A stretch of DNA of 64,000 nt from an uncultured Bacteroidales bacterium (GCA_963737255.1 CAVTSB010000003.1:1255-65254), one strand, 5' to 3'. Positions 3,728 to 26,057 are shown, numbered from the stretch's first letter. The notes: generated by a model from the sequence alone, not told the origin. A program made the numbers and translations.

Positions 3728-3746
3728 TCGTGATTCCGGCGCGATT
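3728..3746. repeat. 19-bp copy of the 3' end of tRNA-Arg (att-like direct repeat)
   Basis: TCGTGATTCCGGCGCGATT is identical to 25981-25999 and lies in the same orientation. Confidence 0.8.
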
Positions 3747-3917
3747 GTTCGCTGCGCTCACGAGCTCGCCGCTCCGCTCCTCGGTCCCTGGCAAGGGTTC
3801 CGTTTTTTATTTTTCTCTCCCTCCGAAGGAGTGTAAGTCTTAAATATAAATCTTCAGCCCGCCTTTCATCTGACCGGTTGGTTTCTCCGGTTATGAAATG
3901 TGAAATAGCCGCTACAT

Positions 3918-4286
3918 TTAGGTATTAATAAGGTCAGATATAGCCTGTACAAATTCTTTGTGAACTAATGGCTTCTGAAAAACCAGATCAGCTCCCAGGT
4001 ATTTTGCACTTGTGAGGTATCCTTCATAATTAAATCTTCCACCACCGGATATTGCTACGATCTTTAATCCCGGATTCTTTTTTCTCAGGTAGAATATCAG
4101 TTCAAGACCTTCTTTCTCAGGCATCACAATATCAGTTACCAGGAGATCCGGAAGACAGCATTCAATCATTTCCAAACCTTCATTCCCGTTGCTGGCAATA
4201 TTAACTTCGTGTCCGGCTTTTTCAAGCATCCTTTTAAGCATTGCCAGTATCGAAGGATCATCATCAATTACTAAAATTTTCGCCAT
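3918..4286 (-). CDS. single-domain response regulator (CheY-like receiver)
   Basis: MAKILVIDDDPSIL...DLLVTDIVMPEKEGLELI...KIVAISGGG follows the receiver pattern, including the phospho-acceptor Asp context. Confidence 0.85.
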   Translation of the reverse strand: MAKILVIDDDPSILAMLKRMLEKAGHEVNIASNGNEGLEMIECCLPDLLVTDIVMPEKEGLELIFYLRKKNPGLKIVAISGGGRFNYEGYLTSAKYLGADLVFQKPLVHKEFVQAISDLINT

Positions 4287-4298
4287 CGCTAAAGTTGA

Positions 4299-6308
4299 TT
4301 AGTTTTCATCCAGGACTTTTCTGATAACCTTGCTGAACTCGCTCAGTTTGATTGGTTTCAGAATTATTTCATAAGAACGGTTTTTTGACTTTGTCACATC
4401 AGATAATTTGTCGATGTATCCGGTTATTATAATGACTTTCAGATGGGGATTTATTTTCCTCATTTCTCCGGCAAGTTCTGTTCCGAGCATTTTGGGCATA
4501 GTCTGATCTGTTACGAGTAATGAATATTTCCCGGGATTTCTTTTAAACTCCTCAAATGCTTCACTGCTGTTGGTCCTGGTGGTGACTTTATATCCGAGGT
4601 TTTCCAGCATCTTTTTGCCCATAAAAGTTATGTCCAGTTCATCGTCGACAAACAGTATGTGTTCGACTCCACGTGGAAGCAGATCTGAAGAATTGATTTC
4701 ATTGACGGGACCTGAAATGTTGTATGGGAAATAAACAGTGAATAATGTACCTTTCCCCGGAGTGCTTTCCACAGTTATTGCCCCATTATAGTTGCTGACT
4801 ATACCGTGCACTACAGAAAGACCGAGTCCTGATCCTGAACCCACTTCTTTCCTGGTAAAGAATGGCTCAAAAATTCTTTCCTTTGTTCTTCTGTCCATTC
4901 CATGACCAGTATCTGATAGTCTTATTCTTACATAAATCCCTATCTTAAGATTGTTGATTTTCTTCGCTGTATTCTGATCAACCATTACACTATCAACCTT
5001 TATGTCAAGGATGCCTCCCATATTTTTCATAGCATGGATGGCATTTGTACATAAATTCATGATAATCTGGTGTATATGAACTGGATCTGCAAGAATTATC
5101 CCTATTCCCGAATCAATACTTTTCCTTATCTCAATTTCATGAGGGAGGGATGCCTTGATAAGGTTTATTACTTCGACTACAATCTGGTTTAGTTCCACAG
5201 GCTTCCTCTCCACGTTCACTTGCCGGCTGAATGTAAGGATTTGCTGGACCAGGTCTTTCCCTCTTAAAGCTGCATTATTTATCTGTTCCATATCGAAACG
5301 CAGAGTGCTTTCCTCAGGAAGTTCTTCCAGGGCCATATCTGTGTAACCCAGGATCGGCGTCAGGATATTGTTAAAGTCATGCGCTATACCCCCTGCCAGC
5401 GTTCCGATCGTCTCAATTTTTTTGAGCTGAAAAAGCTGAGTTTCCAGTTCGCTTCTCTCCTTTTCGGATCTTACGCGAACCTCTATCTCTTTCTTAAGTT
5501 TTAAATTGGTATTTGTCAGCTGTCGGGTCCTTTCAATTACTCTTTTTTCCAGGGTGCTGTTAATTGCTTTGACTTTGTCCTGTTCCAGTTCAAGGAGTTT
5601 TCTCATATAAAAATCCCTCCGTGCGGATAGTTCCTGGGAATACCCTATGAGCATTCCGATAATATTTGAACTGATAAAGAAAAAATTGTTATTGACCAGT
5701 ATCGTGAAAGGCGTGTCTGAGATCCATATAGCTGATATCTCGTAAGCAATTACAATCAGCCAGCCCGCTAACGATGCATAAATAAAGCGCGCTTTAGCAA
5801 ATGTATATCCAAAAATGAAGATCAGTATAAGGCCGGCATAATATGAATAGTTGGATACCCTGGCACCAAGAATTATCATTATTATAATTCCGGATCCGGT
5901 AATAAACATGATGCATGATATCAACAATTGCATATATCTCCTGAACGTTTTGAAATATGAAAAGGCAAATACTGATATGAAAACCGGAAATACAACAGCG
6001 AACCTTATCATCCAGAATATTTTTTTCAGTTCCGGTACCGTGGCGGCATCAAGAAGTGCAAACGCACCGTAAAAAATCATCGCCAGGATCAGAGAAAACC
6101 TGAACGGGTTCAAAGCCTTAAGGTAGTAGTCATTAATAAATTCAGATTCATAATTCGACAAGTATCCTGTAAATGAAAGGGTTAATTTGTTAAAAGTCAT
6201 TGATTCCGATCTTTCCGGGCTCAATCCCAGGAAATTAATCCGCATATTTTTGAAAATATTCATTATTTTCTGACTATCTATCTTATAGTAAACGTCAGGA
6301 GTGGGCAT
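4299..6308 (-). CDS. hybrid sensor histidine kinase/response regulator with multi-TM N-terminal sensor
   Basis: About 6-7 hydrophobic helices are followed by a coiled coil, an H-box (GGIAHDFNNILTPILGY), an HATPase region (DTGHGM, GSGLGLS) and a C-terminal receiver (ILFVDDE...LVTDQTMP). Confidence 0.85.
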   Translation of the reverse strand: MPTPDVYYKIDSQKIMNIFKNMRINFLGLSPERSESMTFNKLTLSFTGYLSNYESEFINDYYLKALNPFRFSLILAMIFYGAFALLDAATVPELKKIFWMIRFAVVFPVFISVFAFSYFKTFRRYMQLLISCIMFITGSGIIIMIILGARVSNYSYYAGLILIFIFGYTFAKARFIYASLAGWLIVIAYEISAIWISDTPFTILVNNNFFFISSNIIGMLIGYSQELSARRDFYMRKLLELEQDKVKAINSTLEKRVIERTRQLTNTNLKLKKEIEVRVRSEKERSELETQLFQLKKIETIGTLAGGIAHDFNNILTPILGYTDMALEELPEESTLRFDMEQINNAALRGKDLVQQILTFSRQVNVERKPVELNQIVVEVINLIKASLPHEIEIRKSIDSGIGIILADPVHIHQIIMNLCTNAIHAMKNMGGILDIKVDSVMVDQNTAKKINNLKIGIYVRIRLSDTGHGMDRRTKERIFEPFFTRKEVGSGSGLGLSVVHGIVSNYNGAITVESTPGKGTLFTVYFPYNISGPVNEINSSDLLPRGVEHILFVDDELDITFMGKKMLENLGYKVTTRTNSSEAFEEFKRNPGKYSLLVTDQTMPKMLGTELAGEMRKINPHLKVIIITGYIDKLSDVTKSKNRSYEIILKPIKLSEFSKVIRKVLDEN

Positions 6309-6505
6309 TAGATTTTATCAAATGCTTTTTAAAATTATGGGATAATAGCATTTTTAACTTTTTTATATGGTAATGATTTGAATTGAGTTGGATTTCTGTT
6401 TAGACAAAAGCAGTTATTCATGGATCAAGGCAAATATACCTTGCTCAACTTACAGATTTTTGCCTCAAAGAGTATTTGAGGAAGGTTTACAGGCAGGAAT
6501 GTAAT

Positions 6506-7405
6506 TCAATGAATTTTAAGGAAAAGATTTACGCCAAGGGCTTCGGCATCAATAGAAACTTTCCCGTTCAGGAGACCTGCCTCTCCCGCAATCCTTAGCA
6601 GATCCTCTCTGCTTCTGTAGTTAAGGTACCAGTCAGATACGAGCTCCATAAAGTTTTTTGATGGATTTTCAGTGCTGAAATTGCCAATTACAAACTCCCC
6701 TCCTTCAGCCATGTAATTGATGTATTTTTTGACCAGGTAAACAAAGTGCTTCTCCCTGAAATAATCAAATAATCCGGCACTCCAGATAAGGTCATACCTC
6801 TGATAAGGCTCAAACCTTAAAACATTGACCTTGTAATAGGAAATCAGTTTTTCAAATTTTTTGTTCTTATTTGAGGAATAGTCAATAGCATTCTGGTCAA
6901 AATCCACCAGGTCAAACCTTATATCGTTTCCGGTGTATATGTTTAGAAATTCATTTACATCTGTTGCCGGTCCGGAACCGAGTATCAGGACCTTTTTTTC
7001 GCCATGTTTTTTAAAAGCAAGATTTCTGCATTGATTAAGGAAATAATCTTTACGGTTCCTCACAGCCCTGGATCCGGCCTGATTCTGAAAACAAATATCC
7101 CAGTTACGGTATTTTTTATTTCCATTAACATGGTGTGAATAAATATGATCGATCAAATAAAAATCTCCCGGATACCCAAATGGCTTTATGTAACAACGGC
7201 CAACCAGACTATTGATGTTAAGTATTGGGTTTAGTACTTCCCTGAACTCACGCAGATATTTTGGATCCAAAGTATTGACAATGAAAGTAAATTCTTCATA
7301 ATCACGAAGTTCAGGACCGCCGTTTTTGACCAGATATGTAAGGAATAATTTCTTATTAATATCAAATGCACAATCAGCCCTGTAAGTTACGTTAAGCATT
7401 TTCAA
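6506..7405 (-). CDS. class I SAM-dependent methyltransferase (KPxGYxGD N-terminal motif type, PhcB-like by memory)
   Basis: Motif I is KKVLILGSGPATD and the post-motif is DLIWSAGLFDYF. Upstream of these lies IKPFGYPGDFYLIDHIY. Confidence 0.65.
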   Translation of the reverse strand: MKMLNVTYRADCAFDINKKLFLTYLVKNGGPELRDYEEFTFIVNTLDPKYLREFREVLNPILNINSLVGRCYIKPFGYPGDFYLIDHIYSHHVNGNKKYRNWDICFQNQAGSRAVRNRKDYFLNQCRNLAFKKHGEKKVLILGSGPATDVNEFLNIYTGNDIRFDLVDFDQNAIDYSSNKNKKFEKLISYYKVNVLRFEPYQRYDLIWSAGLFDYFREKHFVYLVKKYINYMAEGGEFVIGNFSTENPSKNFMELVSDWYLNYRSREDLLRIAGEAGLLNGKVSIDAEALGVNLFLKIH

Positions 7406-7824
7406 TTATCAGGTTTAAAACAAAAACACTTTTGATACCCTTTAGGTTAAGAATTTTCCCATCATTAGGCAAACATAATTATATTTTTAGTATTCAAGTG
7501 CTCAGACGCTAATTTTTCTTCCTGACTTTGAGTATTATACACCGGAAAATTATTTGAATAGGTTGAAAAGCTCAACCTGTTGATGCTTAAAGGAGGGTCA
7601 ATTCCCGTGAGCACCTGGTCGGGTTGTTAAAAATAAACTTGACTCGTATCATATTTGTATCGTAACTTTGTTAAAGTCAATGTAATTCCCAATTGAGGCA
7701 AGCCAATGGTAAAGCTCCTTGTATTGGTGAGTCAATTAAATCCTGATGGATTTCAAGATACCCTGAATCGAAGGGCAAAATCTCATTATCTTAAGTAAAT
7801 GAAGTACTTAAAACTAACAGCATC

Positions 7825-9546
7825 ATGAGTAATAAAAGTGAATTTCAGGTAGCAGGCCAAAATAAGTTGGCTTTGTTTACATTAAAACTTCATCGTGGTG
7901 AGGGGAAGACTCTCATTGCAATGAGTTGGAAGAAAGACAAACCACCGGATGATTTTGAAGGCTTTGCAATCGAATATCAGGAACCCGGTGGTAATAGATT
8001 CTATCCCTTGAAAAACCGACTCAGATTTGAAAGTCCGAAGAAAAAAGTCAGTGCGAACAGTTTTTCCACCAGGTTGGCACCTATTCAGAAATTTCGCTGG
8101 GTACATTTTCCTCGCAATGCTGATTTGCCTGGCGAATTCGTATATAGAATTACTCCCGTTTTCATGAATGAGTATGACGAACTGAGTTATGGTGAATATC
8201 AAGAGGCTGCAATTGTCCTGAAGCGTGAAACATATCCAGGGCAGCTTAATGTGGCATTTACAAGAGGCTTTGTCTCTTCACAGGCATTTGTTGATCGATT
8301 TGAATCCAGAGGTGCAATTTCTACGTTACTGCCCTCAATTGCAAATAGGGGTCTTACTTTTAAACCGACACACCCTGAGACAAAGGAAGCACTTGAGTGG
8401 ATGGGCTTTGAGGCAAGGAGCGAAATTCTGGAGCTGTTGGATAAAGCAATTTCAGATCCTGGAGCACAAGTTTATGTAGTGGCGTATGATCTAAATGAAC
8501 CGGAATTAGTTACGCGCCTCGAGCAACTCAAATCCAGGCTAAAAATAATAATTGATGATGATGGTCCACATGGAGCCCAGGGTTCAGCAGAAAATGAAGC
8601 AGAAAAACTGTTAAAGAAATCTGCCGGAGTGAATAATGTGAAAAGGCAACATATGGGGAAACTTCAGCATAATAAGACTATAGTAGTCGAAGGCACAAAT
8701 ATTAAGGCAGCCGTCTGTGGTTCAACAAATTTCAGTTGGCGCGGACTTTATGTTCAGTCGAATAATGCAGTCATAGTCTATGGCGAAGAGGCAATAAAAC
8801 CATTCCTGGAAGCTTTTGATAATTATTGGACAAATAACTCTCCAGGAGGGTTTGGCACCACTAACTCGGCAACCATTATTGATCTTGGACTAGATGGGAT
8901 TGATGCTAAAATATCTTTTTCGCCACACTCAGCAAACAATGCATTACTGTCAACTATAGCTGATGATATAGAAAAAAATACAACATCAAGCTTATTTTAT
9001 TCGATAGCTTTTCTCTATATGACACCAGGTTCAATTAAAGAAGCTATTAAAAATGTTTCTTCAAAAAATAATATATTCAGCTATGGGGTTTCGGATAAAA
9101 AAGTCGGAGGATTAGATGTTCATAAACCCAATGGGAATATTTCGCCATTATATCCTGCTGCATTAAGTAAAAATGTCCCGGAACCTTTTAAATCAGAACC
9201 AACTGGAGGAGGAGGTACACGGATGCATCATAAATTTATTGTTATTGATTTCGATCGACCTACCGCCCGTGTATATCTGGGTTCTTATAATTTCTCAAAA
9301 GCAGCCGACACCAGTAACGGAGAGAATCTCCTCCTGATCCGGGATCGGAAAATAGCAGTATCTTATATGATTGATCTTTTGTGCCTGATTGACCATTATC
9401 ATTTCAGAGTTACCCAGAACGAAACCAGGAAAGCTAAGAAGGAACTTAAATTAACCAAACCACCTCGTTCTGCTAATGACATCCCCTGGTGGTCAGAGTA
9501 CTATACTGATGATATTAAAATTCAAGACAGAATCCTTTTTTCATAA
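7825..9546 (+). CDS. phospholipase D-like protein with two HKD-type motifs
   Basis: The two motifs are LQHNKTIVVEG...GSTNFS and MHHKFIVIDFD...GSYNFS. The N-terminal roughly 140 aa form a beta-rich domain of unknown type. Confidence 0.8.
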   Translation: MSNKSEFQVAGQNKLALFTLKLHRGEGKTLIAMSWKKDKPPDDFEGFAIEYQEPGGNRFYPLKNRLRFESPKKKVSANSFSTRLAPIQKFRWVHFPRNADLPGEFVYRITPVFMNEYDELSYGEYQEAAIVLKRETYPGQLNVAFTRGFVSSQAFVDRFESRGAISTLLPSIANRGLTFKPTHPETKEALEWMGFEARSEILELLDKAISDPGAQVYVVAYDLNEPELVTRLEQLKSRLKIIIDDDGPHGAQGSAENEAEKLLKKSAGVNNVKRQHMGKLQHNKTIVVEGTNIKAAVCGSTNFSWRGLYVQSNNAVIVYGEEAIKPFLEAFDNYWTNNSPGGFGTTNSATIIDLGLDGIDAKISFSPHSANNALLSTIADDIEKNTTSSLFYSIAFLYMTPGSIKEAIKNVSSKNNIFSYGVSDKKVGGLDVHKPNGNISPLYPAALSKNVPEPFKSEPTGGGGTRMHHKFIVIDFDRPTARVYLGSYNFSKAADTSNGENLLLIRDRKIAVSYMIDLLCLIDHYHFRVTQNETRKAKKELKLTKPPRSANDIPWWSEYYTDDIKIQDRILFS

Positions 9547-9617
9547 TAGCCTCAACTGATTATCCTTAATTAAACTGTTAATTTCTTATGCAACTTTTAA
9601 TCAATATACTCTAAACC

Positions 9618-10235
9618 ATGTTACAAGATAAGATTCCCATTCCAACTGATCATTTTTTTAAATTTCTTGCAATCTCTGGATTAGTTGCTACAATATACTG
9701 TGCATCCTTTCCATTAATTTTTATAACGCCTTATAATGACAAAATAGATGAACATAATTTGTTAGTCGCAGATCTTAAAGCAAAAGAAGGCTATCTTCTG
9801 GGAACTATTAGAGATTTAAAAGGTTATATACCAGATAGTTTAGAAAAGAATCAAATATTTTATTTCCTGAATCTAGGTGATGTCTCAGATACATGCTATT
9901 ATATAAACCTGACTGTTGATTCTTCATTAAATCGGCATATAAAAGAGCTTAATAAGAATTATTTTGAATTAGCAAGGACTAGGTTTAGTTCTGGGGTAAT
10001 GCATGTTTCTATGGATGTGGATTCAAAAAATTTGAAGATTCATGAAATATTAACTTATTTATGCGGATTCCTCGCTTTTGGCTTGACAATTTGGGGAATG
10101 TTCTTATGGTATCGATATCAGAAGAAACTTGATGGTTACCAAATGAAGGTCGACAATCACCAACGATTACTTATCCGTAAGCTTGAACTTGAAATAAAAG
10201 CCCTTGAAAAAAATAATGAGAACACGATTTTATAA
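9618..10235 (+). CDS. hypothetical two-TM membrane protein with C-terminal coiled coil
   Basis: The ORF has hydrophobic segments FLAISGLVATIYCASFPLIFI and ILTYLCGFLAFGLTIWGMFLWY. I recognise no family. Confidence 0.5.
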   Translation: MLQDKIPIPTDHFFKFLAISGLVATIYCASFPLIFITPYNDKIDEHNLLVADLKAKEGYLLGTIRDLKGYIPDSLEKNQIFYFLNLGDVSDTCYYINLTVDSSLNRHIKELNKNYFELARTRFSSGVMHVSMDVDSKNLKIHEILTYLCGFLAFGLTIWGMFLWYRYQKKLDGYQMKVDNHQRLLIRKLELEIKALEKNNENTIL

Positions 10236-10401
10236 GATTAGTGACCCAAGTAATAGCTATTCGGATTGCTCTCATTATGTTTTATCACAGTATTTTATAA
10301 TTACGATAATCAAGTAGTTTTAAGTGTATGATTTGTGAAGTGAACAATTCTGTTATAACAATAAACAATTAATAATTAAGATAATGAAAGGAGATTGAAC
10401 T

Positions 10402-11340
10402 ATGTACACCAAAATTATGAATTGGTCCATAAAAGGACTCAAACTGAAATTATTTTGTTTGTTACTGCCAATGAGTCTTCTATTGGTATCATGCAGCAAA
10501 CCCTTTTATCCGGGTAAATCTGATCCGCTATTGAAGACGATGCAGGCATGTTCAATGGAATGGGGTACGAAAGTAACAGCTAAGATTACTGCAAAATTTG
10601 AAGACCTTAAAAAGGGCGGAGTAGTTGAATGGGAGGCCGCAAGGGAAGCCGGCGGAATCTTGTTAAAAGACTTCAAGAACGATTCGATAAAAAAAGAGGT
10701 TTATGATAAATATATTAATTGCATTAAACCTGCTATTGAGAAATTAATATCCTCTGATCAACGGCCAACGGTTGTATTAATCGGATCTAAAGAGGATTAT
10801 ACAACTTATAAGATGAAGGACTTAGAGCAAACCAGTGTAGAATTGTTGCAGAAGAGATTTGGAAACTTCAATGTTTTACCATTCACTGTTAGTTACATTT
10901 GGGACAATGAAGAGTCGATACGTGAAGTCAAGCCGGCAGTCATTGTAATTCATGCTTCCGCATTTCATAATGATCAGCACAAGGACGAAGCGATATCTAA
11001 ATTTCAAGCCCTCATATTGTCTTTGTATGGATTGTCTGAAACAAAATTTTTGGTATTCTCGCGCCTTCCAGAAGAAAATCCTTCTCCTGATCTCTGTCAG
11101 AGATGGAACCGTCAAGTAGATTTCTTGAGTGGAAAAAAATTCCGCAACCGTCTAATTTTCTACCCGATGCCTGGGGAAGAATCAAACTTTACAGGTAAAG
11201 CAGGGATTGAAGTCAGCCAAATAGTAAGATGCTTAAGTGGATTAGAAGCAACGAGTTACAGTTCAGTTTACTTACGTGAAATTGAAAAAGAAGCGCAGCA
11301 ACGGATACTTAATAGTTCATGCACCCTAGTGAGACGTTAG
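10402..11340 (+). CDS. hypothetical lipoprotein
   Basis: The ORF has a signal and lipobox (LLLVSCSK). I recognise no family. Confidence 0.5.
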   Translation: MYTKIMNWSIKGLKLKLFCLLLPMSLLLVSCSKPFYPGKSDPLLKTMQACSMEWGTKVTAKITAKFEDLKKGGVVEWEAAREAGGILLKDFKNDSIKKEVYDKYINCIKPAIEKLISSDQRPTVVLIGSKEDYTTYKMKDLEQTSVELLQKRFGNFNVLPFTVSYIWDNEESIREVKPAVIVIHASAFHNDQHKDEAISKFQALILSLYGLSETKFLVFSRLPEENPSPDLCQRWNRQVDFLSGKKFRNRLIFYPMPGEESNFTGKAGIEVSQIVRCLSGLEATSYSSVYLREIEKEAQQRILNSSCTLVRR

Positions 11341-11470
11341 AACACCAAAATAACATGTAACTCAGGCAGACCGAGCAATTGCTAGTAATTTTAAGGGCTC
11401 GTTTGTAGTGTCGGGATATTAGGTTAGGGTTGAAGTTGAGAATCCTATTTCCGTAAGTTCTTAGGTGTTC

Positions 11471-11722
11471 GGGTTGCTCTCTTTATGTTGCATTGCAGAA
11501 ATGCTTAGGTAATAGGTATGCAACATAAATCGCAACCCTCACTATTGATTAATGCGAGCCTGCTGCATCCAATTTTAATCGGCAATTCGTGGGTTTGCAA
11601 GAAGCAATATTTCATGACACAGCAAGGCCAAGCCCTTCGGGTTACTGCGTAAGCCTTGCTTTAGTCATTAAATACCCCCACTTACATTTGCCGAAAATTG
11701 TCTGCTACTCGCGACGGCTCGC
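11471..11722. ncRNA. candidate structured RNA region (nested helices, class unknown)
   Basis: Hairpin 11471-11538 pairs GGGTTGC/GCAACCC and TTATGTTGC/GCAACATAA. A second domain at 11554-11722 has P1 GCGAGCC/GGCTCGC, P2 AATTTT-CGGCAA/TTGCCGAAAATT, and hairpin 11614-11668 with an 8+5 bp stem and a CCC-UUCG-GG tip. Confidence 0.35.
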
Positions 11723-12239
11723 CTGATAATTAATTCTCGATTTTATTTCAATGTCCAATAAATGTTAAAGGAAATAGGTTTTTTGGCTATGATGTTCAGG
11801 ATTAGAGCCAGTTCTAACCCATCTTAATCATAAATGCTTGTTTAATTGGTATTAGCCTGTATTTCAATAATATACGTATTATTGAATTTGGCAAATAAGG
11901 CCATTCCCAGCCCGTTTAAGACCCGATCTCCCTTTTCCTGGTATCTACCTATTTCTGAAATGCAAAGTGTCCTAAAATGCATTATATCAAGCAAATACGC
12001 GATTTTGTCATTTCTGACATTATATAACAGATTGTATTAATGTATGTTATTGTAATAATTGACACAGGGAATTTGGGAACAGAATTACGGAATAATAATT
12101 CATTACAGTCTTAGGATATCAATCAAAGGATAATAGTAAAATATTTCTGCGATTTTCACTTCCCTATTCTCCAGATATTGCCTAATTTCGATCAACGTAG
12201 AAAGTCAGACAATTGCATCAAGCATTGGAAGTGTTGAGG

Positions 12240-12470
12240 TTTGAAGGGAAGTGGCTGTTGTGACTGACCAGGCAGTGCTATAATAAAACCGTTATGGCAC
12301 AATTATGCCACATAACTGTTTGAAAAGGTGACTGATCTAAGCCATATCCAGGAGTTGCTGGGGCATAAGAGCAGCAGGGCAATTTTGATTTATACTCATG
12401 TATACGACTCAGAGCATACAGAAGATCAGTTGTCCGTTTGATGATCTTTAAGGAAGTTGAAAAAAGGACC
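12240..12470 (+). pseudogene. tyrosine recombinase/integrase, C-terminal fossil with stop and frameshifts
   Basis: AIIKPLWHNYAT*LFEKVTDLSHIQELLGHKSSRAILIYTHV corresponds to the family pattern HxLRHSFATHLLExGxDLxxIQxLLGHxSxxTTxIYTHV. The terminal SPFDDL-like CPFDDL lies in another frame. Confidence 0.7.
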
Positions 12471-12680
12471 ATCATTGAGAATATTTGGTATAAAAGATGA
12501 GTTACTTTAATATGAGTAATAGGAACGTAGATTTTCCGGGTTAGGAATTCTATAACTATAAATTCAACTCATGTGGACAGAGTTTACAACACCACAGAAA
12601 TAAAGCTACATTTTGATGATTTATAACCAGTTAGCAAAAATTTGTGATAATCATTAGAGTTTAATTTAACCCCTAAAGAA

Positions 12681-15528: not shown

Positions 15529-15569
15529 TAGGCAAGCACGAGGCTAATCACTACTTAAATTACCTGATT

Positions 15570-16817: not shown

Positions 16818-16979
16818 TCAAATTATTATAGAATGAAGACCTTTAAATCAGACTACACAAAGAGACAAAAAAACATTCGTCTACCATGACAAATTGTGGA
16901 AGCCTGCCTATAACGGACGATAAAAGTCATTTTTTTGTCACGGTTTTTGCGGGCTTCCTCTTTCTAGCAAGTTTATCAT

Positions 16980-17290: not shown

Positions 17291-17294
17291 CCGT

Positions 17295-17403
17295 CAGTCT
17301 GTCTAATAACTAAAATGAAGCCCCTGAGAATTGAATATTTGAAATTTTTTGTGTATAGGTATCCAAAGAAATGAGTAAGCAAAATGGGTTATTAGACAGA
17401 CTG
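17295..17403. repeat. 16-bp perfect inverted repeat with a 77-nt loop
   Basis: CAGTCTGTCTAATAAC at 17295-17310 is the exact reverse complement of GTTATTAGACAGACTG at 17388-17403. Confidence 0.9.
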
Positions 17404-17502
17404 CCATTAGCAATAAGGCAATTTCAGTACGCAAATTTCAAATACAAATAATATCCTCTAGACAATAGTCAAGACTTAGATAGATTCAAAGAATCTTCAA
17501 AA

Positions 17503-19886
17503 ATGCTTATTAAAATGTTTAAAAATTATTTTAAATCAGCATTCAGTTTTTGGAAACATAACAAAATATTTGCATCCATAAATGCAATGAGTTTGTCAAT
17601 AGCACTTGCCATTTCTTTCATTATTATGCTTTATGTTGTAAATGAGTATAGTTATGATAGATGCCATGCAAATCATAAAGGATTTTCAGGGTTCTTAACT
17701 ATTATGTCGATTATAAGAAATCATATACAGAAACTCCATACGTTTTAGCCTCAGCACTAAAAGCTGAGTATCCCCAGGTTGAAAAATCCATATCTGTAAT
17801 ATCCAAAGCTAGCATAATAATAAAAGTTGAAGATGAAGATTTTACTGTATCTGATGCAGTTTTTACTAATTCTGAAGTTTTTGACATTTTCACACTTCCA
17901 ATTGTAAAGAAAGTACAACAAGGAGACCTTATGGAGGATAAAAATTCAATTGTCATTTCCCAGGAGTTAGCAAAAAAAATCTTCCCGGGACAGGATCCAA
18001 TCGGAAAGAGAATCACAATTAGTTCATCAGATGGAGATTTACAATTTTTTGTCAAAGCTGTTTTCAGGGATATCCCTTTGAATTCGACTTTCAAAGCTCA
18101 ATGTCTTTTTAGTAGTAAACTGATTATTGAAAACCTTAACAAAGCTTATAATGTTACAAATTCAGACAAGGACTGGACCAAAAACTCATTTGTAACCTGG
18201 ATTTTACTATCAAAAAACTCTGATGCAAAGGAATTAGAAGAACAATTCCAGGCTTTTGAGCTTAAGAACCTTGGCCAGAATTCTCATTATCATTATTTAC
18301 TTCAAAATTTATCAAAAGTTTACCTGGGTTCTGAAAATATCGGAAATGCCGGAATAAAAGGCAATACAAAGAATATAAAATTATTTATTACAATCGCTCT
18401 TTTAATAATTCTCGTTGCTTCAGCAAATTATATAATCCTGTCTACTTCTGTTTCATCTGAGCGTATGAAGGAAATTGGGTTGCGTAAAACATTTGGAGCA
18501 AATAATCGTGAAATTAAATATCAATTATACATCGAGTCTGTTTTAATGGCAATAGGGATAATGCCGATCTCAATTTTAATTATGTGGTCAGCTCTCCCAG
18601 CCGCAAGCAAGTTGTTCCAGACACCTATACAAATATTACCCTCAAACATACCGGCTTACATATTGATCTTCTTTACAATAACTTTGTCCATCGGTATTTT
18701 ATCCGGGGTATATATTTCCACAATCCTTTCAAGACTAGAGGTTACTAACATCATAAAGAAATCTATTCAAACAGGCAAAAGGAAAACTCTCCTACGCTCG
18801 TCGCTTATTGTATTTCAATTAATCATTTTTTGTTCTTTTGTATCATCCGTGCTCATTCTACACTCCCAATATCAATATGCAATTAAAAGAGATCCCGGAC
18901 ATTATAACAGTAACTTAATTATATTAAATCTTGGTCGAAATTTTAATGGATATTCAGCATTACTTAATGACCTTAAAGCTAATACTAATGTTATAATGGC
19001 TGCTGGATGTGCAGAATGCGTACCTATGCAGAATTCAGCAACAGGAATATACCAGAATTTCCAGGATAAAGAAGTTCGGGTACAAGTAGAGGCAATGTAT
19101 GTTGATTTCAATTTTTTGGAAACGTTGGGGATAAAACTGGTTGAGGGACGTTTTTTTTCCAAAGAATTTGGGAGTGATCAGACGCAATCTGTAATATTAA
19201 ACGAAACTGCTGTGAAGAAGTTAGGTATTGTAAATCCTGTTGGGCAAAAGATTGCAGGTTCGACTATTATAGGGGTTGTCGAGGATTTTAACCTTCATTC
19301 AATACATACAGAGATTCCACCAACAATGATTGAGTTGAAAAACGAAATTCATTGGCAGTTAGTTGTTCGTTATATGCCAGGTTCCTTTAAAAATGTCCTT
19401 CAGATGCTGGAGTCAGAATGGAAAAAATTTGATACCGGCCAGCCATTTAGTTATAATACAATTGAAGACCTGATTTCAGGCATATATTTATCAGAAAAGA
19501 AGTTGGGTATTTCAGTAGGTATTTATGCAATTATAGCAATTTTAATTGCTGCATCAGGATTATTTGGGTTAACTCTTTTTATTGCCAGAACCAGGACAAA
19601 AGAAATAGGAATAAAGAAAGTGTTTGGATGTTCTGAAAAATCAATTATTTACTCTTTTCTATGGGAAAACTTTGTCCTCGTACTTATAGCCGGATCAATA
19701 TCTATTCCTGTAACTCTTTATTTCATGACTAACTGGTTAAAGGATTTCGCTTATAAAATTAATATTAATTGGTGGGCATTAGTGATACCTTTTTTAATTG
19801 CTTTGATTATTGTTCAGTTGACCGTTTTTGTTTATTCATTCAACGTATCTAGAATCAATCCTGTTAACGCTCTGAAATACGAATAG
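17503..19886 (+). CDS. ABC transporter permease, FtsX/MacB-like, one frameshift as assembled
   Basis: ORFs 17503..17748 and 17931..19886 join if one A is added to the A-run at 17677-17679, giving HKRIFRVLNYYVDYKK. FtsX motifs are IGLRKTFGANNREI and IGIKKVFGCSEKSII. Confidence 0.8.
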
Positions 19887-19960
19887 CAATAAAAATTCTT
19901 TGTCTTTAATTAAATCTAAATTAACAGATTATATAAAATAGTCCTAACAGCTAATACATA

Positions 19961-19998
19961 GGGCTTCATACGGTGCGAAGCACCCAGTGGTGAGCCCC
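19961..19998. repeat. conserved compound hairpin module, copy 2
   Basis: GGGCTTCATACGGTGCGAAGCACCCAGTGGTGAGCCCC lies downstream of the FtsX stop. Confidence 0.75.
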
Positions 19999-20176
19999 GG
20001 TTGAAATAAATCTCAAAGGAAATTGAACTTTGTGGATATAAAGTGATGTTCCAGCCGTTTATCAGATTTTTGTTAAATGAACAGGAAAACTTCGGGGAAG
20101 AAATGTAAAGACAGACTCCCGTTAGCTGCAACAAATGTGCATAAGACGTGACTAATCAGCCTTTAATCCTTTTAAT

Positions 20177-21379
20177 ATGAAAGATTTATTCCCCCAAATG
20201 ATATTGCTTGATTTAAGGTTTATTAAGCTAGCATTATTGGCCATTTTGATTTGTTCATGTAACACATCTGATTCAAATCATTATGAGATCGATCCAAGAA
20301 CCTTTGGCGAGAATGATATTAAACTTTCAGATATTGCAGATGATATTACCTATATTCCCCTTGACAACAGCTTTCCGATAGCACTAGTCTATCATACTTC
20401 CATTAATATTTTGGAAAACTCGATATATCTATCAGCAAGGGATATAGGCATAATAAAATTTAACAGAAACGGAAAAATGCCTAAAGTAATAGGGAGGAGA
20501 GGTAGAGGCCCTGGAGAATGGCACTATTGCATGTCTGTTGCAGTAGACCCACGTAGTGAAACTATTTATGTAATGGACAATAGTAACGAAATTAAAGTTT
20601 ACTATAAAAGTGGAGTTTTTAAAGGTGCATTGAGATTACCAGGGAATGAAGATGGATTCGACTTCTCTCAAATAAATTTTTTTAATTCAAACCTTTTTGC
20701 TTCTCAATATATTAATATGGGACATGCAAAATATAACTGGATTATTATTGACACTCTAGGTAAAATAGTTACTTACAGATTTAATCCCATCCCAACATTC
20801 ACATCTAATATGGGGGGTAATGGTGGAATATTTAAATATGAAGATAAAATATCATACTGGGATTGGTATAATGACACAATCTTTACAATCTCTTCGGATT
20901 TAAACTATAAGGCATCTTATACATTTTCCTTTGGGGAAGGGAAAATCCCTCGAGATAAAATCCCGTCAAAAGATTTTTTCGACATTCTTTCTAAATATTA
21001 TCTAACAGCAAATATACTTGAGACAAAACGGTTTCTGTTATATATGTATGGACATAATAAAAGAGGGACACTGGCATTGATTGACAAAAAGACGAAAAAA
21101 AGTTATTTGACTCCAATTTTCGACGAAAAAGTTGATGGTATTTCTAATAATTTGGATGGAGGTTTGAAGTTTCTCCCTTTGTGTTATTTTACAGAAAATG
21201 AAAGAGAATATTTAATAAGTATCATTGACCCGTTCCAACTCAAAAAATATATCAATGGTGAGGAATTTATTAATTCAGCTTCTGAATTTCCACAAAAGAA
21301 AGGTTCATTAGTTAAGCTTGTAGAAAATGTAAAAGAGACTGATAACCCGATACTAATGCTCGTAAGATTAAAAAAATAA
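20177..21379 (+). CDS. 6-bladed beta-propeller lipoprotein, paralog C
   Basis: It has a lipobox (LICSCN) and the motifs SDIADDITYIPLDNS, GRGPGEWH and C-terminal ETDNPILMLVRLKK. Confidence 0.7.
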   Translation: MKDLFPQMILLDLRFIKLALLAILICSCNTSDSNHYEIDPRTFGENDIKLSDIADDITYIPLDNSFPIALVYHTSINILENSIYLSARDIGIIKFNRNGKMPKVIGRRGRGPGEWHYCMSVAVDPRSETIYVMDNSNEIKVYYKSGVFKGALRLPGNEDGFDFSQINFFNSNLFASQYINMGHAKYNWIIIDTLGKIVTYRFNPIPTFTSNMGGNGGIFKYEDKISYWDWYNDTIFTISSDLNYKASYTFSFGEGKIPRDKIPSKDFFDILSKYYLTANILETKRFLLYMYGHNKRGTLALIDKKTKKSYLTPIFDEKVDGISNNLDGGLKFLPLCYFTENEREYLISIIDPFQLKKYINGEEFINSASEFPQKKGSLVKLVENVKETDNPILMLVRLKK

Positions 21380-21412
21380 TCTACTAGTAAAAAATTGCAG
21401 CAGCTAATCCAT

Positions 21413-21440
21413 GGGGCTTTACACGGTGTGAAGCACCCGT
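21413..21440. repeat. conserved compound hairpin module, copy 3 (degenerate)
   Basis: GGGGCTTTACACGGTGTGAAGCACCCGT lies downstream of paralog C. Confidence 0.6.
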
Positions 21441-21477
21441 TATAGATTACAGGTTGTACTAAATCCATTCTGAAATA

Positions 21478-21639
21478 TTTTCGACCTCACAGTAGCTGTT
21501 ATGATGCGTTTTGGTGGGCATGGAGTACTTATACCGGAATTTGCGGCATGTTGTGATGTTTCCGGAAAAAACCTCCTTTATCGGGAAAACAATTAAAACC
21601 GGCAAAAATTCAGACAGGTTGTTAGATAGACTGCTGTTA
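21478..21639. repeat. 162-bp dispersed repeat, copy 2
   Basis: It aligns to 15367-15528 and ends in TTAGATAGACTGCTGTTA. Confidence 0.9.
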
Positions 21640-21854
21640 GCGGGCATTTGTCACAACCTCTGAACCACTGACTACCATATTATTACAATCTGACAATCTC
21701 TTTATATCAAGACAAATTCGACTGACCTGAAAGACACAAAAGGAAAATAAAAAACGCCCGCTAACTCCTCTTATTGAAATTCTAAATCCTTATGAATATA
21801 TTGCTATGACAATTTTCTTTTAATCTTGACTCTCTAAACTAAAAGTATGAACGC

Positions 21855-22892
21855 ATGAAAGTAAATGAAGTCCCTTTTATTGAAAACATTTTTATTGATA
21901 CCTCAATTTTTGAAGACCAAAATTTCTTTCATGGTAGTAAAATCCGCAGCCTGCTCCACTATTCAAACCTTGAATTTATTTCAATTTTCATGACAACGAT
22001 ATCTAAAATGGAATTAATTAATAGAATGAAAACAAGGTTAGAGAACTGTAAATCTGACTATAATAAATTAATAAAGGAACTTAACAATCATGAACAAAGA
22101 ATTTTAAAAAACATTGACATCTATGATCTAATCCAAGTTCCATTAATAACTGTAAATAGCAGTCTCCAGAGACTTATCAATAAGCTTGAAACTAATATTA
22201 ATGCCAATAAAATTAAAATTATAAATACTGAAAACTTAGCAGCAGAGGACGTATTTAATCGTTATTATAATAACATGCCTCCATTTGGGCCTGGTAAGAA
22301 AAAGTATGGATTTCCTGATGCATTTATCATAATGAGTTTGGAATCATGGTGTAAGAAAAATAGAAAGAAGATGCTTGTCTTAAGTAAAGACACTGACTTT
22401 CATAAATTTAAAAGCAGATACCTAATCTCCCAGGATAACATAACTGAATTGCTCCAGACTATTACTTTAAAATATGATTCATTTCAAGAGACACATATAC
22501 TCCCCACTATAAAGCAACTTTTAACCAAGTTCCATAAGGAATTGATTCAAGAGATTGAAAATCAAATTCAGGACAATGTCATACTAAAGACTGACTATGA
22601 AAAAACTGGTAACTTCAAAATTGAAAAGATGAATTTCTTGTCTGAGAAGGTAACCTCAATTAGAGACACTTACGCTGAAGTGGAAATAATGATGGAGGTG
22701 ACTAGTAGCATGACTGTTTTCCCAAGCCCTCAAGACATAGACCGTGCAATATTTGAAGACAAAATATCAAAACACAAACTTGTTCAACACATTTCGGTGC
22801 CAATAGACATTGAAGTTTACTATACGAGAGAGCAAACTGTTAAAATTAAATGGATCAACACCAATGAACCATTGGTTATCGAATACTATTAA
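21855..22892 (+). CDS. PIN-like domain protein (DUF4935-like)
   Basis: The N-terminal IFIDTSIFEDQNFF and the central GFPDAFIIMSLESW...VLSKDTDF resemble the PIN-like DUF4935 pattern as I remember it. Confidence 0.5.
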   Translation: MKVNEVPFIENIFIDTSIFEDQNFFHGSKIRSLLHYSNLEFISIFMTTISKMELINRMKTRLENCKSDYNKLIKELNNHEQRILKNIDIYDLIQVPLITVNSSLQRLINKLETNINANKIKIINTENLAAEDVFNRYYNNMPPFGPGKKKYGFPDAFIIMSLESWCKKNRKKMLVLSKDTDFHKFKSRYLISQDNITELLQTITLKYDSFQETHILPTIKQLLTKFHKELIQEIENQIQDNVILKTDYEKTGNFKIEKMNFLSEKVTSIRDTYAEVEIMMEVTSSMTVFPSPQDIDRAIFEDKISKHKLVQHISVPIDIEVYYTREQTVKIKWINTNEPLVIEYY

Positions 22893-23155
22893 TAAAAAAA
22901 CACTCCGCTAACTCGGACAATATGAGTAAGTTGTTTGTCACACTTTTTGCCCCGCCAAGGCGGGATTTCGTCTCCGCCTGTTGGCGGATCCTCAACTTTT
23001 GCTCCAGCACCCATGACAATTTTCTGGCTTTAGTACCATCCCGAGTACTCGGGACTGTCCAGCGCTGTCGTCGGGTAACACAACCTCCCTTTATTGTTGG
23101 GCTGTTAGGTTCAATTTACGTCGTATAAAGAACAAACAAACTCATTGAACAATAA

Positions 23156-24424
23156 ATGAATAGAATATTTTTCTTTTTCATGATCATTCTGACTTTCGGA
23201 TGTAATTCCCAAAATGGACAAAGAAATAAATTCGGTGATATTCAAGTAGACAGTCCATTCTACACAATCGACTTTCCTGCAATACTTGAAAATAAAAGGG
23301 AGGTACCAATTTCTGAAATAGCTGAAAATATAACCTATATTCTCCTCGAATCCACTGGTGAATCAGCATTAGGTAGAATTCATGATGCAAAGTTCACCAA
23401 GGACTATATATTCATTCATGCTTATGGGACACCTCTCCTTGCTCAATTTGATGTAAAGGGTAAATTTTTGCGATACATAGGGAAAATTGGCAAAGGCCCT
23501 GAAGAATATGATCTGATCCGGCAATTCAGTGTTGATGAAAAAACAGGGTTAATTTATATACAACCTAATAGGGTAAGGAATATTCAGGTCTATTCCTTCA
23601 CGGGTAAATTTGTAAAGACAATTAAGATTAATCGTGACGAAAGAGCAATCGTTTGGTGTAGAGACAGTTTATTTTTGTGTTATAGTGAGCCCTCAATTGG
23701 AAATGAAGAATATGTTTTCAAAGAAACAAACTCTCTTGGCGAAATAAGGCAAACGGTAAAAAACTACTACCAATGGAAAGATCCGCCTCCATTTGGGCGG
23801 ATGATGAGTTACCCGGGCCAACATTTCTTTTATCATCTTGACAATCGCCTTCATTTCAAGGGAGTCTATAACGACACAGTTTATTCATACAACAAAAACA
23901 GTAAGATTATTCCTAAGTTTTCAGTAGACCTCGGAAAATACAAGTTACCTGAAGAAATGATATTTGAACGTGGTTTAGTACGACGAATACCTCCTAAATA
24001 TTTGTGGGCTTGTGTCAATGAATCCGCAAACTATGTCTTCATCTATTATTCTGCTTATGATACTGATGATACTCAAGGACCAGGACATGGGCCCCTGGAG
24101 GCCGGATTTATGATTTATAATAAAAAAGAAGGTAAAGGAACTTCCATTAGGAGTAAAGATGGCAAAATGATTTTATTCAATAATATAGGTGATTGGGGAT
24201 TTATAAATGATATTGATGGAGGACCTGAATTGATACCTGAATACATCAATGATTCTTTGGCTTTTCGATTTATAAGTTCAATTGCGATGAAAAAATATCT
24301 TATGTCGGACGAATTCTTAAACTCAACACCAAAGGATCAAACTAAAAAAGCGATGCTTATTAACCAGATGGTTGGACTAAAAGAGACTGATAACGATCTG
24401 TTGATGATTGCTAAGTTGAAATGA
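23156..24424 (+). CDS. 6-bladed beta-propeller lipoprotein, paralog D
   Basis: It has a lipobox (LTFGCN) and the motifs SEIAENITYILLEST, GKGPEEYD and C-terminal ETDNDLLMIAKLK. Confidence 0.7.
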   Translation: MNRIFFFFMIILTFGCNSQNGQRNKFGDIQVDSPFYTIDFPAILENKREVPISEIAENITYILLESTGESALGRIHDAKFTKDYIFIHAYGTPLLAQFDVKGKFLRYIGKIGKGPEEYDLIRQFSVDEKTGLIYIQPNRVRNIQVYSFTGKFVKTIKINRDERAIVWCRDSLFLCYSEPSIGNEEYVFKETNSLGEIRQTVKNYYQWKDPPPFGRMMSYPGQHFFYHLDNRLHFKGVYNDTVYSYNKNSKIIPKFSVDLGKYKLPEEMIFERGLVRRIPPKYLWACVNESANYVFIYYSAYDTDDTQGPGHGPLEAGFMIYNKKEGKGTSIRSKDGKMILFNNIGDWGFINDIDGGPELIPEYINDSLAFRFISSIAMKKYLMSDEFLNSTPKDQTKKAMLINQMVGLKETDNDLLMIAKLK

Positions 24425-24615
24425 GCTTTGACTTTGTATCCTATCTCCCTAAGAATTGAGCGTCCTATATCGCTTAATAACAGGTAAATACAGCATTTAT
24501 AATAATTAATCTACGATCTAACTAATTATATATCATCACTATATATCTATGCAACATAGCCTGGGATTTTAATTCCGGGCTTTTTTATTTCTACTAACCC
24601 TTAAATCAAATAAAT

Positions 24616-24906
24616 ATGAAAACACGACAGACAAATATATCTGAAGTAAGACTTGTTTACAGAACAAAAGTCAAAGCTTCAGAGAGACTTAAGGTTAAAT
24701 GCTTAAAGAATGCCTTTGACATATTTATGGAAAGTTGGGACCTGGATTCCATCGAACATATTGAAGAGTTTAAGCTCATGTTACAGCGGGCGCAGCAAAT
24801 GAAATTTTTGGGCGAACTTGCAATAAAAAGACAAGGATATAATTCTACCGATGGGGATAAATCCTTTTGGGATAGTGTTGCATTTCGGTTGTGTTCATAT
24901 CTATAA
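24616..24906 (+). pseudogene. RadC-like JAB-domain protein, truncated fossil
   Basis: The first roughly 55 aa (ISEVRLVYRTKVKASERLKVKCLKNAFDIFMESWDLDSIEHIEEFKLML) match the N-terminus of RadC-like proteins from Bacteroidetes mobile elements. The HNHPSG metalloprotease core is missing. Confidence 0.6.
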
Positions 24907-25179
24907 GTTTTAGTTTATAATAGGGTAAAGGTATAATGTATAAATGAATGTAATAAATTAAATATCAATTATATAGTTGCTTTTTATCAACAAAATTAGT
25001 GACATTTATCAGTGATGCAAGGGTTATTTTGCAGTAATAGTGATACGCGTGTACAGGATTTGAGGCCAGGCGGCTGCGGAATTTTGGAAGTATCAGAAAA
25101 TAATAAATAATGATTCTAAATAACTTTTATCCTGGACTCTCTTAAATTTGATCTAATTATTTACCATAAGATCATAACT

Positions 25180-25842
25180 ATGTTGACGAATGATTGCCTG
25201 TCAGATTGGTTTAAGGATTTAAGTAAGATCATATTTGATACCAAAATATCAATTGACAACATTAGAAGAATAACACACCCAGAAGATGACATTGAAGAAA
25301 AAGTTTTAAAACATGGCTTTTTTTCGCATTGTTATCGTCAATCACGATTTACTATTATTGTACAATTGTGTAAAATTTTTAATAAAACCAGTAACCAAAA
25401 AAGAAATTTCTATAAACTCTTCAATCGACTTTCTATTGACAAATATGATAAGACTATTACAGATATCCTGAAAGAAAACGAATCATCAAACCATGCATTT
25501 GCTAATTGGGGTAATCTTGAAAGATCGGGTTTATTCACAAACAGAGTTGACATTGTAAATGAAATAAATTCGCTGATGAGTGAAATTGAAATTCAAAAAG
25601 GAATAATAGAACGAATTCTTGTTCTTAGAGACGGTCAATATGCTCACTCTGATCCTGATTCCAGATTACCAAATGTATCAAATCAAGAATTAGAAATTCT
25701 AATTAATCTGGCAATCAAAATTTATAACAACTTATATGGTAAATTTTATGATACCACACTGGTATTTGCCCATACTATTGACTGGAAAATTGATTATCCA
25801 ATTAAAGCTTTAGCAAAAATTAGGAGGGAAAGACTTAAATAA
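25180..25842 (+). CDS. HEPN-like (AbiU2-like) protein, putative
   Basis: The protein looks all-helical and carries an Rx5H motif in LVLRDGQYAHSD. The family assignment is from memory only. Confidence 0.4.
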   Translation: MLTNDCLSDWFKDLSKIIFDTKISIDNIRRITHPEDDIEEKVLKHGFFSHCYRQSRFTIIVQLCKIFNKTSNQKRNFYKLFNRLSIDKYDKTITDILKENESSNHAFANWGNLERSGLFTNRVDIVNEINSLMSEIEIQKGIIERILVLRDGQYAHSDPDSRLPNVSNQELEILINLAIKIYNNLYGKFYDTTLVFAHTIDWKIDYPIKALAKIRRERLK

Positions 25843-25983
25843 ATCCTCTTCAAATTTCATTATTATATGTACTTGTTAGGCCAGTTAGTTTCCTGTTGTA
25901 GATTTGTTGAAGGTTTCAGAAAAAATAAAAAGTGCAATTATCTGTATTTCAAGGTAATTGCACTATGAAGCACGACTGTTTCG

Positions 25984-26057
25984 TGATTCCGGCGCGATTC
26001 GAACGCGCGACCCACAGCTTAGAAGGCTGTTGCTCTATCCAGCTGAGCTACGGAACC
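25984..26057 (-). tRNA. tRNA-Arg (anticodon TCT)
   Basis: The 74-nt cloverleaf reads GGTTCCG TA GCTC AGCTGGATA GAGC A ACAGC CTTCTAA GCTGT GGGTC GCGCG TTCGAAT CGCGC CGGAATC A. No CCA is encoded. Confidence 0.95.

Follow-up and report, generated by a model that had tools for sequence, protein, structure and literature searches.

The window analyzed here is a 64,000-nucleotide stretch of DNA (C3:1255-65254) from the genome of an uncultured Bacteroidales bacterium (G000; an assembly of 5,126,065 bp in 12 contigs). It contains an intact tRNA-Arg(TCT) gene and, 3' of it, 22.25 kb of accessory DNA that ends at a second, displaced copy of the tRNA 3' end. This DNA lies in a genus-wide hotspot behind the tRNA. 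An earlier note, made from the sequence of the window, had described the region as an island inserted into the tRNA 3' end and bounded by a 19-bp direct repeat. The window covers nearly all of a 66-kb contig, with only ~5 kb of sequence left of the displaced (distal) copy.

The repeat itself was confirmed as an exact match. The 19-mer TCGTGATTCCGGCGCGATT occurs on the plus strand at 3728-3746 and at 25981-25999, in direct orientation, and even with 2 mismatches allowed the window holds no third copy. Across the whole genome (5,126,065 bp), a search allowing up to 1 mismatch returned exactly 2 copies, both in the window. Two matches to the 19-mer arose in 0 of 100 shuffles. The tRNA-Arg(TCT) gene is on the minus strand at 25984-26057 (ARAGORN; Rfam RF00005, 67.5 bits), and the proximal repeat copy spans the final 16 nt of the gene and 3 nt of its trailer, as the note had stated; the enclosed DNA is thus on the 3' side, where an inserted element would be expected. 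Between 3.7 and 26 kb, no extra internal copy of the tRNA 3' end was found of the sort that tandem accretion would leave, and Rfam at a permissive threshold found nothing across the region besides the tRNA. The features of the locus are as follows.

2640-3650, plus strand: FISUMP (Fib_succ_major) lipoprotein gene in the left flank (Pfam, NCBIfam)
3728-3746, minus strand: distal copy of the tRNA 3' end, a displaced fragment (19/19 match)
3747-3786, minus strand: remnant of a tRNA-derived module, blocks CCGAGGAGC...GAGCTCGTGAGC...GCAGCGAAC (alignment to congener units)
3787-7548, mixed strands: four-part block of kinase remnant, response regulator, hybrid kinase and methyltransferase (Pfam, remnant translation)
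3787-3843, plus strand: histidine-kinase C-terminal remnant, PGKGSVFYFSLPPKECKS followed by a stop (translation)
3918-4286, minus strand: response regulator (Pfam)
4299-6308, minus strand: hybrid histidine kinase (Pfam)
6506-7405, minus strand: SAM methyltransferase (Pfam)
7825-9546, plus strand: PLD-like protein with weak DrmC-like domain matches (Pfam, PADLOC, NCBIfam)
9618-10235 and 10402-11340, plus strand: two open reading frames (ORFs) without a family match (Pfam, PADLOC, NCBIfam)
11341-12157, no strand: gene-free stretch (ORF list)
12158-12634, plus strand: truncated recombinase head unit (PF00589, tblastn, genome copies)
12681-24435, plus strand: co-directional gene array, its genes spaced by repeated non-coding elements (Pfam; repeats D1, D2, D7)
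12681-13901, 15570-16817, 20177-21379 and 23156-24424, plus strand: four DUF5128 beta-propeller lipoproteins of the array (Pfam)
14333-15064, plus strand: 243-aa ORF of the array
17931-19886, plus strand: FtsX/MacB-type permease of the array (Pfam)
21855-22892, plus strand: PIN_12 protein of the array (Pfam)
24616-24906, plus strand: ORF with a RadC-like fragment, similarity at 24640-24849 (tblastn)
25180-25842, plus strand: HEPN_AbiU2 protein at the end nearest the tRNA (Pfam PF18734)
25886-25983, minus strand: tRNA trailer with an intrinsic-terminator hairpin, AGTGCAATTA...TAATTGCACT and then a T-run (sequence reading)
25984-26057, minus strand: intact tRNA-Arg(TCT), carrying the proximal repeat (ARAGORN; Rfam RF00005, 67.5 bits)
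26067-26160, minus strand: 5' part of a pseudo-tRNA upstream of the intact tRNA (sequence reading, congener comparison)

Accessory DNA in a tRNA hotspot

Composition marks one edge of the region. Genome GC is 0.434. In 5-kb windows across 8.7-26 kb, GC drops to 0.338-0.351 (at or below the 1.6th genome percentile) and the tetranucleotide distance is at or above the 96.5th genome percentile, and composition returns to typical values abruptly at the tRNA. The atypicality of 3.7-8.7 kb is only mild (75th-90th percentile). Since the flank left of the distal repeat is likewise low in GC (0.364-0.387), there is no compositional step at that repeat, and the sharp boundary lies at the tRNA alone. The impression that the enclosed DNA is AT-richer is confirmed with these qualifications. 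The left flank is itself accessory. It includes, in the low-GC DNA at window 1-2100, two gene fragments of the 23S-rRNA-IVS family (four-helix-bundle) and a Poly_export fragment.

The ORFs of the region were annotated with Pfam, PADLOC and NCBIfam, by which no excisionase, mobilization or transfer genes were found; PADLOC and NCBIfam gave only weak DrmC-like and mad2-like matches. The RadC-like fossil that had been noticed by eye is present: with the RadC paralogue of the same genome as the query, tblastn matched 24640-24849 at E=1e-9 and 37% identity. Neither Pfam nor whole-genome HMM searching for RadC gave a match in the window. An exact look-up of the AbiU2 protein matched only two contigs of ~1 kb, and an exact look-up of LeuD, which is encoded on the other side of the tRNA, returned no record. 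At the opposite end, the terminal motif PGKGSVFYFSLPPKECKS is what we take to be the C terminus of the ATPase domain of a histidine kinase. The 11-nt inverted sequence AAGGGTTCCGT, which the note had taken for a copy of the 5' end of the intact tRNA and a hint of past rearrangement, lies inside this coding remnant (3787-3843). Its match is to the pseudo-tRNA (26148-26160) instead and is at chance level (E=3.2), so that together with its location in a conserved coding remnant it is ruled out as a mark of rearrangement.

A 2.5-kb probe from the right flank showed that the synteny of leuD and tRNA-Arg(TCT) is kept in more than 20 congeners at ~70% DNA identity. The 18 kb beyond the tRNA were then fetched in 12 related genomes, 11 of them of the same genus. 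Within the 18 kb, none of the 12 carries homologues of the proteins of the region, so the enclosed DNA is accessory, as claimed, and the same 22 kb is not found in place in these relatives; integrases are likewise absent from the 18 kb in all 12. Instead, all 11 same-genus congeners have a hypervariable stretch of 0.8-12.5 kb of unrelated DNA behind the tRNA. In 10 of these 11, the backbone then resumes with genes that G000 has at C10:12.8-31 kb. Contig C10 begins with a copy of IS21. The left end of C3 would join the start of C10, which would make the variable region ~40 kb long, from the tRNA to the pcm gene. The repeat-bounded 22 kb would then be only part of it, with variable DNA continuing past the distal repeat.

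A repeat that arose by chance in ordinary chromosomal DNA has nothing in its favor except the shortness of the repeat. It is already refuted by the shuffles, by the uniqueness of the pair in 5.1 Mb, by the extreme composition and by the absence of the region from congeners.

In G001, G018 and G020, homologues of the FISUMP gene (36-43% aa identity) lie 100-230 bp beyond the tRNA and convergent with it, which is the arrangement that the FISUMP gene at 2640-3650 would have if the 22 kb were absent. The likeness to an empty site is confined to gene order, and the three FISUMP genes are no nearer to the C3 copy than to its paralogue on C11. Among metagenomes, a search with the flank protein gave two close contigs, neither of them with an empty site. 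One (L044; FISUMP 96% aa identity) has the same junction of FISUMP gene, repeat copy and response-regulator block. In the other (L045; 85%), homology stops ~15 bp before the repeat, which this contig lacks, and other genes follow. An exact-pattern scan of metagenomes for the repeat with its left flank gave no match. The 12 relatives lack the genes of the region at this tRNA; neither an empty site at strain level nor a variant with partial occupancy turned up, and L044 shares the junction.

These data also bear on whether the region could still be mobile, that is, an island excisable at the 19-bp repeats by an integrase encoded elsewhere in the genome. The repeat copies are still 19/19 identical and intact tyrosine recombinases are encoded elsewhere in the genome, but the region has no detected excisionase, mobilization or transfer genes, the nearest relative, L044, has a repeat copy that already differs by 2 mismatches, and the exact-pattern scan of metagenomes revealed neither an empty nor a circular junction. 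We consider a mobilizable island very unlikely.

Origin of the distal repeat

The sequence next to the distal repeat is homologous to DNA that stands behind tRNA-Arg(TCT) in other members of the genus. The 40-55 nt inward of the distal copy (...ACCGAGGAGCGGAGCGGCGAGCTCGTGAGCGCAGCGAAC/AATCGCGCCGGAATCA) match units located directly behind the tRNA-Arg(TCT) of congeners, and the repeat and at least 55 nt on its inner side can be aligned, one block after another, to units 94-180 bp behind this tRNA (in G139, G024, G199 and others). Of 349 genomes in the family, 10 contain the module pattern GAGCTCGTGAG...ATCGCGCCGGAATCA, and all 10 belong to this one genus.

A search for the tRNA 3' end in 143 genomes, each at least 90% complete, showed how such units are arranged. 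About 20 of the 143 have 2-5 copies at a spacing of 94-180 bp, often in tandem units that do not differ at all from one another. In G174 the 3' end occurs five times at a spacing of 133 bp (the tRNA is followed by four units), and in G024 it occurs four times (three units). Genes between the copies were seen in only two of the 143 genomes, G000 (22,253 bp) and G233 (5,778 bp), and neither of the two intervening genes of G233 is an integrase.

The units form a graded series, in which (i) a GC hairpin stands in for the anticodon arm in the pseudo-tRNAs of G018, G198 and G274, (ii) an insertion in the T-loop is added, TTCGAA/CCGAG...GAGCTCGTGAG...CGAAC/AAT (G135 and G139), and (iii) the forms in G024 and G199 are remodelled further. 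The hairpins of congener units are of the type TCCCGA...TCGGGA and have compensatory variants. The distal repeat side of G000 matches the 3' two-thirds of a unit of the G139 type, and the L044 contig holds a fuller unit (remnants of the D-arm and of the hairpin, together with the 5' half of the T-arm) directly beside the same response-regulator block.

Because the distal repeat and at least 55 nt next to it are homologous to congener tandem units, the repeat most likely predates the present content of the region. The distal copy is, from these alignments, most likely the tail of a kind of tRNA-derived unit that other members of the genus have with no island. The accessory DNA, whose proximal edge is the trailer and terminator at 25886-25983, occupies a position where elsewhere a mere 30-90 nt separate the tRNA terminator from the unit.

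The same features can be read as the outcome of classical integration. One or more elements with a tyrosine integrase would have entered the T-loop or 3' end of tRNA-Arg(TCT), rebuilt the tRNA and pushed the old 3' end outward, and the integrase genes and most of the element DNA would since have decayed or been replaced; the 19-bp copies would be attL and attR, and the neighboring tRNA-derived sequence would be older att scars. The repeat copies the tRNA 3' end in direct orientation, lies on the correct side and runs 3 nt beyond the gene, which matches the signature used in island mapping (PMC4383910; PMC9897764), and the hypervariability behind the tRNA in 11 of 11 same-genus congeners also speaks for this history. 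However, the displaced fragment adjoins tRNA-derived unit sequence and not the island DNA expected at an attR-type junction, and congeners share the pseudo-tRNA-type unit without the element. We regard classical integration as the main alternative but on the doubtful side.

A second pseudo-tRNA is found on the other side of the intact gene. The copy at 26067-26160 has a 33-nt palindromic insert in its D-loop, has the hairpin ATCCCGAGGCTTCGGGAT as a substitute for the anticodon arm and ends within the T-loop. Similar pseudo-copies occur in the congeners G005 (five copies), G018, G015 and G019. The palindromic element (TCCCGATAGCTCCCGATAGCTATCGGGACGGGA, window 26112-26144) is found at ~14 sites of the genome in all, caps longer hairpins at many loci and has 100% identical copies in several congeners.

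The alleles of the tRNA are mixed as well. The intact tRNA-Arg(TCT) is 100% identical to those of G005, G024 and G015 (D-loop GCTGG, T-loop TTCGAAT), the congeners with the most similar LeuD have a different allele, and the pseudo-copy at 26067-26160 has the T-stem GTGCG of the G018-type allele. Given this disagreement, the working copy of the tRNA may be a replacement.

Elsewhere in the genome, hairpin-bearing tRNA copies accompany small GIY-YIG genes. All seven small GIY-YIG genes of the genome are directly 3' of tRNA genes other than tRNA-Arg(TCT), with tandem units behind tRNA-Asn (C1:357.5-359.5 kb), tRNA-Pro(GGG) (C5:644.8-646.0 kb) and tRNA-Met (C8:270.5 kb). Each such unit combines a small GIY-YIG gene (PF01541, E ~5e-15) with a partial tRNA copy whose arms are replaced or interrupted by GC hairpins. 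Arrays of two to four 5' tRNA fragments also stand upstream of tRNA-Asn, Pro, Ala and Leu. The pseudo-tRNA at 26067-26160 (with ATCCCGAGGCTTCGGGAT) and the congener units are like these cassettes in having a GC hairpin for the anticodon arm, and unlike them in that there is no GIY-YIG gene at the tRNA-Arg(TCT) locus; PF01541 has no match in the window. By resemblance, the distal repeat may be linked to the GIY-YIG cassettes.

Interior blocks and the recombinase-headed array

The genus was probed with 6400-25980, and matching loci were fetched and aligned. Different parts of the region match different genomes. The two-component/methyltransferase block at 3787-7548 is 93.6% identical over 3,769 bp to contig C8 of G203, in which the genes on either side are unrelated and the block is not close to a tRNA; the histidine-kinase remnant at its edge is kept both there and in L044. 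The permease segment 17414-19957 is 96% identical to G197, G236 and G183, and 23071-24435, with one DUF5128 gene, is 94% identical to G233. These single-gene segments have different neighbors in each genome. Block identities of 93.6-96%, against ~70% for the backbone, indicate separate recent exchanges. The interior is, by these comparisons, a mosaic of independently acquired blocks and not one inserted element, and the differing histories of its blocks count against classical integration.

Shorter conserved segments of 260-400 bp each also recur. The 260-bp element at 11462-11722, inside the gene-free stretch, has 86-93% identical matches in many genomes of the genus. Together with 16899-17298 and 24466-24784, the latter overlapping the RadC-like fragment, these segments have multi-genome matches at 76-93% identity.

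The only recombinase remnant of the region is in the middle of it. At 12292-12448 on the plus strand, the final 52 residues of a 387-aa recombinase are recognizable by tblastn with an intact paralogue at C5:648181-649344, and PF00589 positions 134-171 match at 12298-12411 with 27.7 bits. The identities of 70% and 87% (aa) in two frames indicate one frameshift. The integrase fossil that had been reported is therefore there, and no intact integrase accompanies it. The remnant belongs to a head unit, 12158-12634, consisting of ~130 nt, the last 52 recombinase codons and ~190 nt of conserved sequence with a GTTAG end (12630-12634). The unit is also present at C1:11.4 kb, at C10:153.3 kb and in part at C8:62.8 kb, four genome copies including that in the window, and GTTAG is the end of homology in every copy. 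The intact C5 paralogue scores best against Xer and integron-integrase models yet is under their cut-offs (189 vs 265 bits for TIGR02249; 203 vs 220 for NF040815), and it has a 115-aa N-terminal extension. Judged by this similarity, the fossil is an Xer/integron-integrase-like remnant in a repeated array-head unit rather than a tRNA-targeting island integrase. This, too, is difficult for classical integration: neither a tRNA-type integrase nor a remnant of one was found in the region, the sole recombinase remnant being Xer/IntI-like, mid-region and part of a repeated unit, and no integrase was found within 18 kb of the tRNA in the 12 related genomes.

Behind the head unit, the array at 12681-24435 has its genes on one strand with repeated non-coding elements between them. 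A 65-nt hairpin element of the D2 type follows three genes of the window (at 15072, 19950 and 21403) and also flanks the G197 and G236 copies of the permease segment; upon folding, one copy has z=-3.7 and the other two are unremarkable. A non-coding 355-bp element without an ORF (13934-14288) recurs in an array on C6 and inside the array that the intact C5 recombinase heads, which is likewise co-directional (C5:648181-658294). The 355-bp element has copies of 80-90% identity in dozens of congeners, often multicopy (up to 10 window-derived matches per genome). Recombinase-headed arrays also occur at C8:62.8-68 kb, C10:153.3 kb and C1:11.4 kb, with the recombinase gene intact on C5 alone. Four of the six array loci of the genome are 3-14 kb from tRNA genes, and the truncated head unit on C10 is 55 nt from a tRNA-Gly fragment. 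The 18-nt box TTAGACAGACTGCCGTTA was rejected as a genome-wide signature of the arrays; having no match in the C5 array, it seems to be tied to the neighborhood of DUF5128 genes.

For comparison we used integrons and integrase-less cassette arrays, as categorized by IntegronFinder (PMC4889954). The segment 12158-24435 resembles integrons in that an Xer/IntI-like gene, here truncated, is followed by a site ending in GTTAG (GTTRRRY-like) and then by co-directional genes with hairpin-forming repeats between them, single genes being 94-96% shared with the arrays of other species. It differs in that the recombinase is co-directional with the array, in the sub-threshold IntI score and N-terminal extension of the intact paralogue, and in the size of the cassettes (up to 2.5 kb). 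The inter-gene elements also differ, ranging from 65 to ~460 nt and being only candidate attC sites by resemblance. A more far-reaching proposal would be that tRNA-derived hairpin units behind tRNAs are landing sites for recombinase-headed arrays, and that 12158-24435 is an integron-like cassette platform of a Bacteroidota type, with a co-directional recombinase, a GTTAG-ended entry site and long hairpin spacers, that settles between a tRNA and a displaced fragment. The nearness of four of the six array loci to tRNA genes and the C10 head unit next to a tRNA-Gly fragment are hints in its favor, but the proposal is speculative and we consider it unlikely.

Proposed stepwise accretion and other tRNA loci

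We favor, with a probability of about 0.55, the explanation that 3747-25980 is a non-mobile composite accessory region, that the distal repeat is left over from an older tRNA-derived unit and that the 22 kb separating the tRNA from this unit were added step by step. The older unit would have been a pseudo-tRNA with a hairpin for its anticodon arm and an insertion in its T-loop, of the kind that stands in one to four tandem copies behind the tRNA in many congeners. Several independent additions of accessory DNA would then have built up in the short spacer that separated the tRNA terminator from the unit. The pieces would be (i) the two-component/methyltransferase block, (ii) the PLD-like gene group, (iii) the co-directional array headed by a now-truncated Xer/integron-integrase-like gene, with genes swapped singly between species, and (iv) the end piece of RadC-like fragment and AbiU2 gene. 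Insertion would have been by site-specific recombinases that are now lost or truncated; this and the order of the steps, which is undated, are inferred.

Several points weigh against stepwise accretion. The lack of a strain-level empty site or partial-occupancy variant, described above, is one, and another is that the order of insertion comes without dates. The tandem units of congeners could themselves be scars of integrase events and not independent duplications. In addition, the same genome holds a classical island at tRNA-Arg(CCT) (C1:170.8-198.3 kb), 27.4 kb long and with a 59-nt repeat, that has an integrase at its far end (170917-172083) and RadC beside the tRNA (197521-197985). The RadC-like fragment beside tRNA-Arg(TCT) mirrors this layout, so the region may derive in part from a true tRNA-integrating element. 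The C1 island also has fragments of a type I restriction-modification system and a FISUMP gene.

The tRNA-Arg(CCT) island came from an Islander-style scan of all 44 tRNA genes of the genome, which gave eight long-range repeats of tRNA fragments (18-59 nt in length, with copies 2.9-47 kb apart) as well as many short-range arrays of 5' and 3' tRNA fragments. For classical integration at tRNA-Arg(TCT), it is a point in favor that seven other long-range tRNA-fragment repeats exist in the genome, one of them with an intact integrase and RadC, and that the RadC-like fragment of the window is at the tRNA-proximal end.

Islander-type methods (PMC4383910) map genomic islands that lie between an intact tRNA and a displaced piece of it, and tRNA gene fragments have been treated as integration scars (PMC9897764); the sublocation classes of Williams 2002 are cited there. 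The present region is like such islands in that its two ends are an intact tRNA and a direct copy of the 3' end of this tRNA, and in its low-GC accessory cargo, which includes defense-type genes and is absent from related species. It is unlike them in that it has no island integrase but only a 52-codon remnant, its displaced fragment is inside a tRNA-derived unit that congeners have island-free, its interior is a mosaic of separately acquired blocks, and variable DNA reaches past the fragment. Of the claim that an element was inserted into the tRNA 3' end, the accessory nature of the DNA, the expected side and the displaced 3'-end copy hold, whereas the tandem-unit origin of the repeat and the mosaic interior go against a single insertion.

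In kind, the region is an ordinary decayed, composite tRNA-hotspot island. Accessory regions flanking tRNAs with displaced tRNA fragments are already routine, so the island call adds little, and the cargo, a few defense-type genes (AbiU2, PIN, PLD-like) and a lipoprotein family, is unremarkable. What the locus offers is a caution: a perfect tRNA-end repeat with copies 22 kb apart need not delimit one integrated element. Where tandem tRNA-derived units surround tRNAs, the repeat can predate the cargo, which is relevant to automated island mapping in Bacteroidota-like genomes. More interesting than the island are the recombinase-headed, cassette-like arrays and the units of tRNA fragment, hairpin and GIY-YIG gene.

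On the other side of the tRNA, 26263-30078 contains two sets of aconitase-family (LeuD/LeuC-like) genes in which each large subunit is split into two ORFs. The split LeuC-like ORFs represent either genuine pseudogenes or frameshifts introduced by the assembly, and if they are assembly errors, the other truncated genes of the window need to be read with caution. Farther to the right, a cobalamin riboswitch is found on the minus strand at 43088-43303 (RF00174, 93.8 bits).

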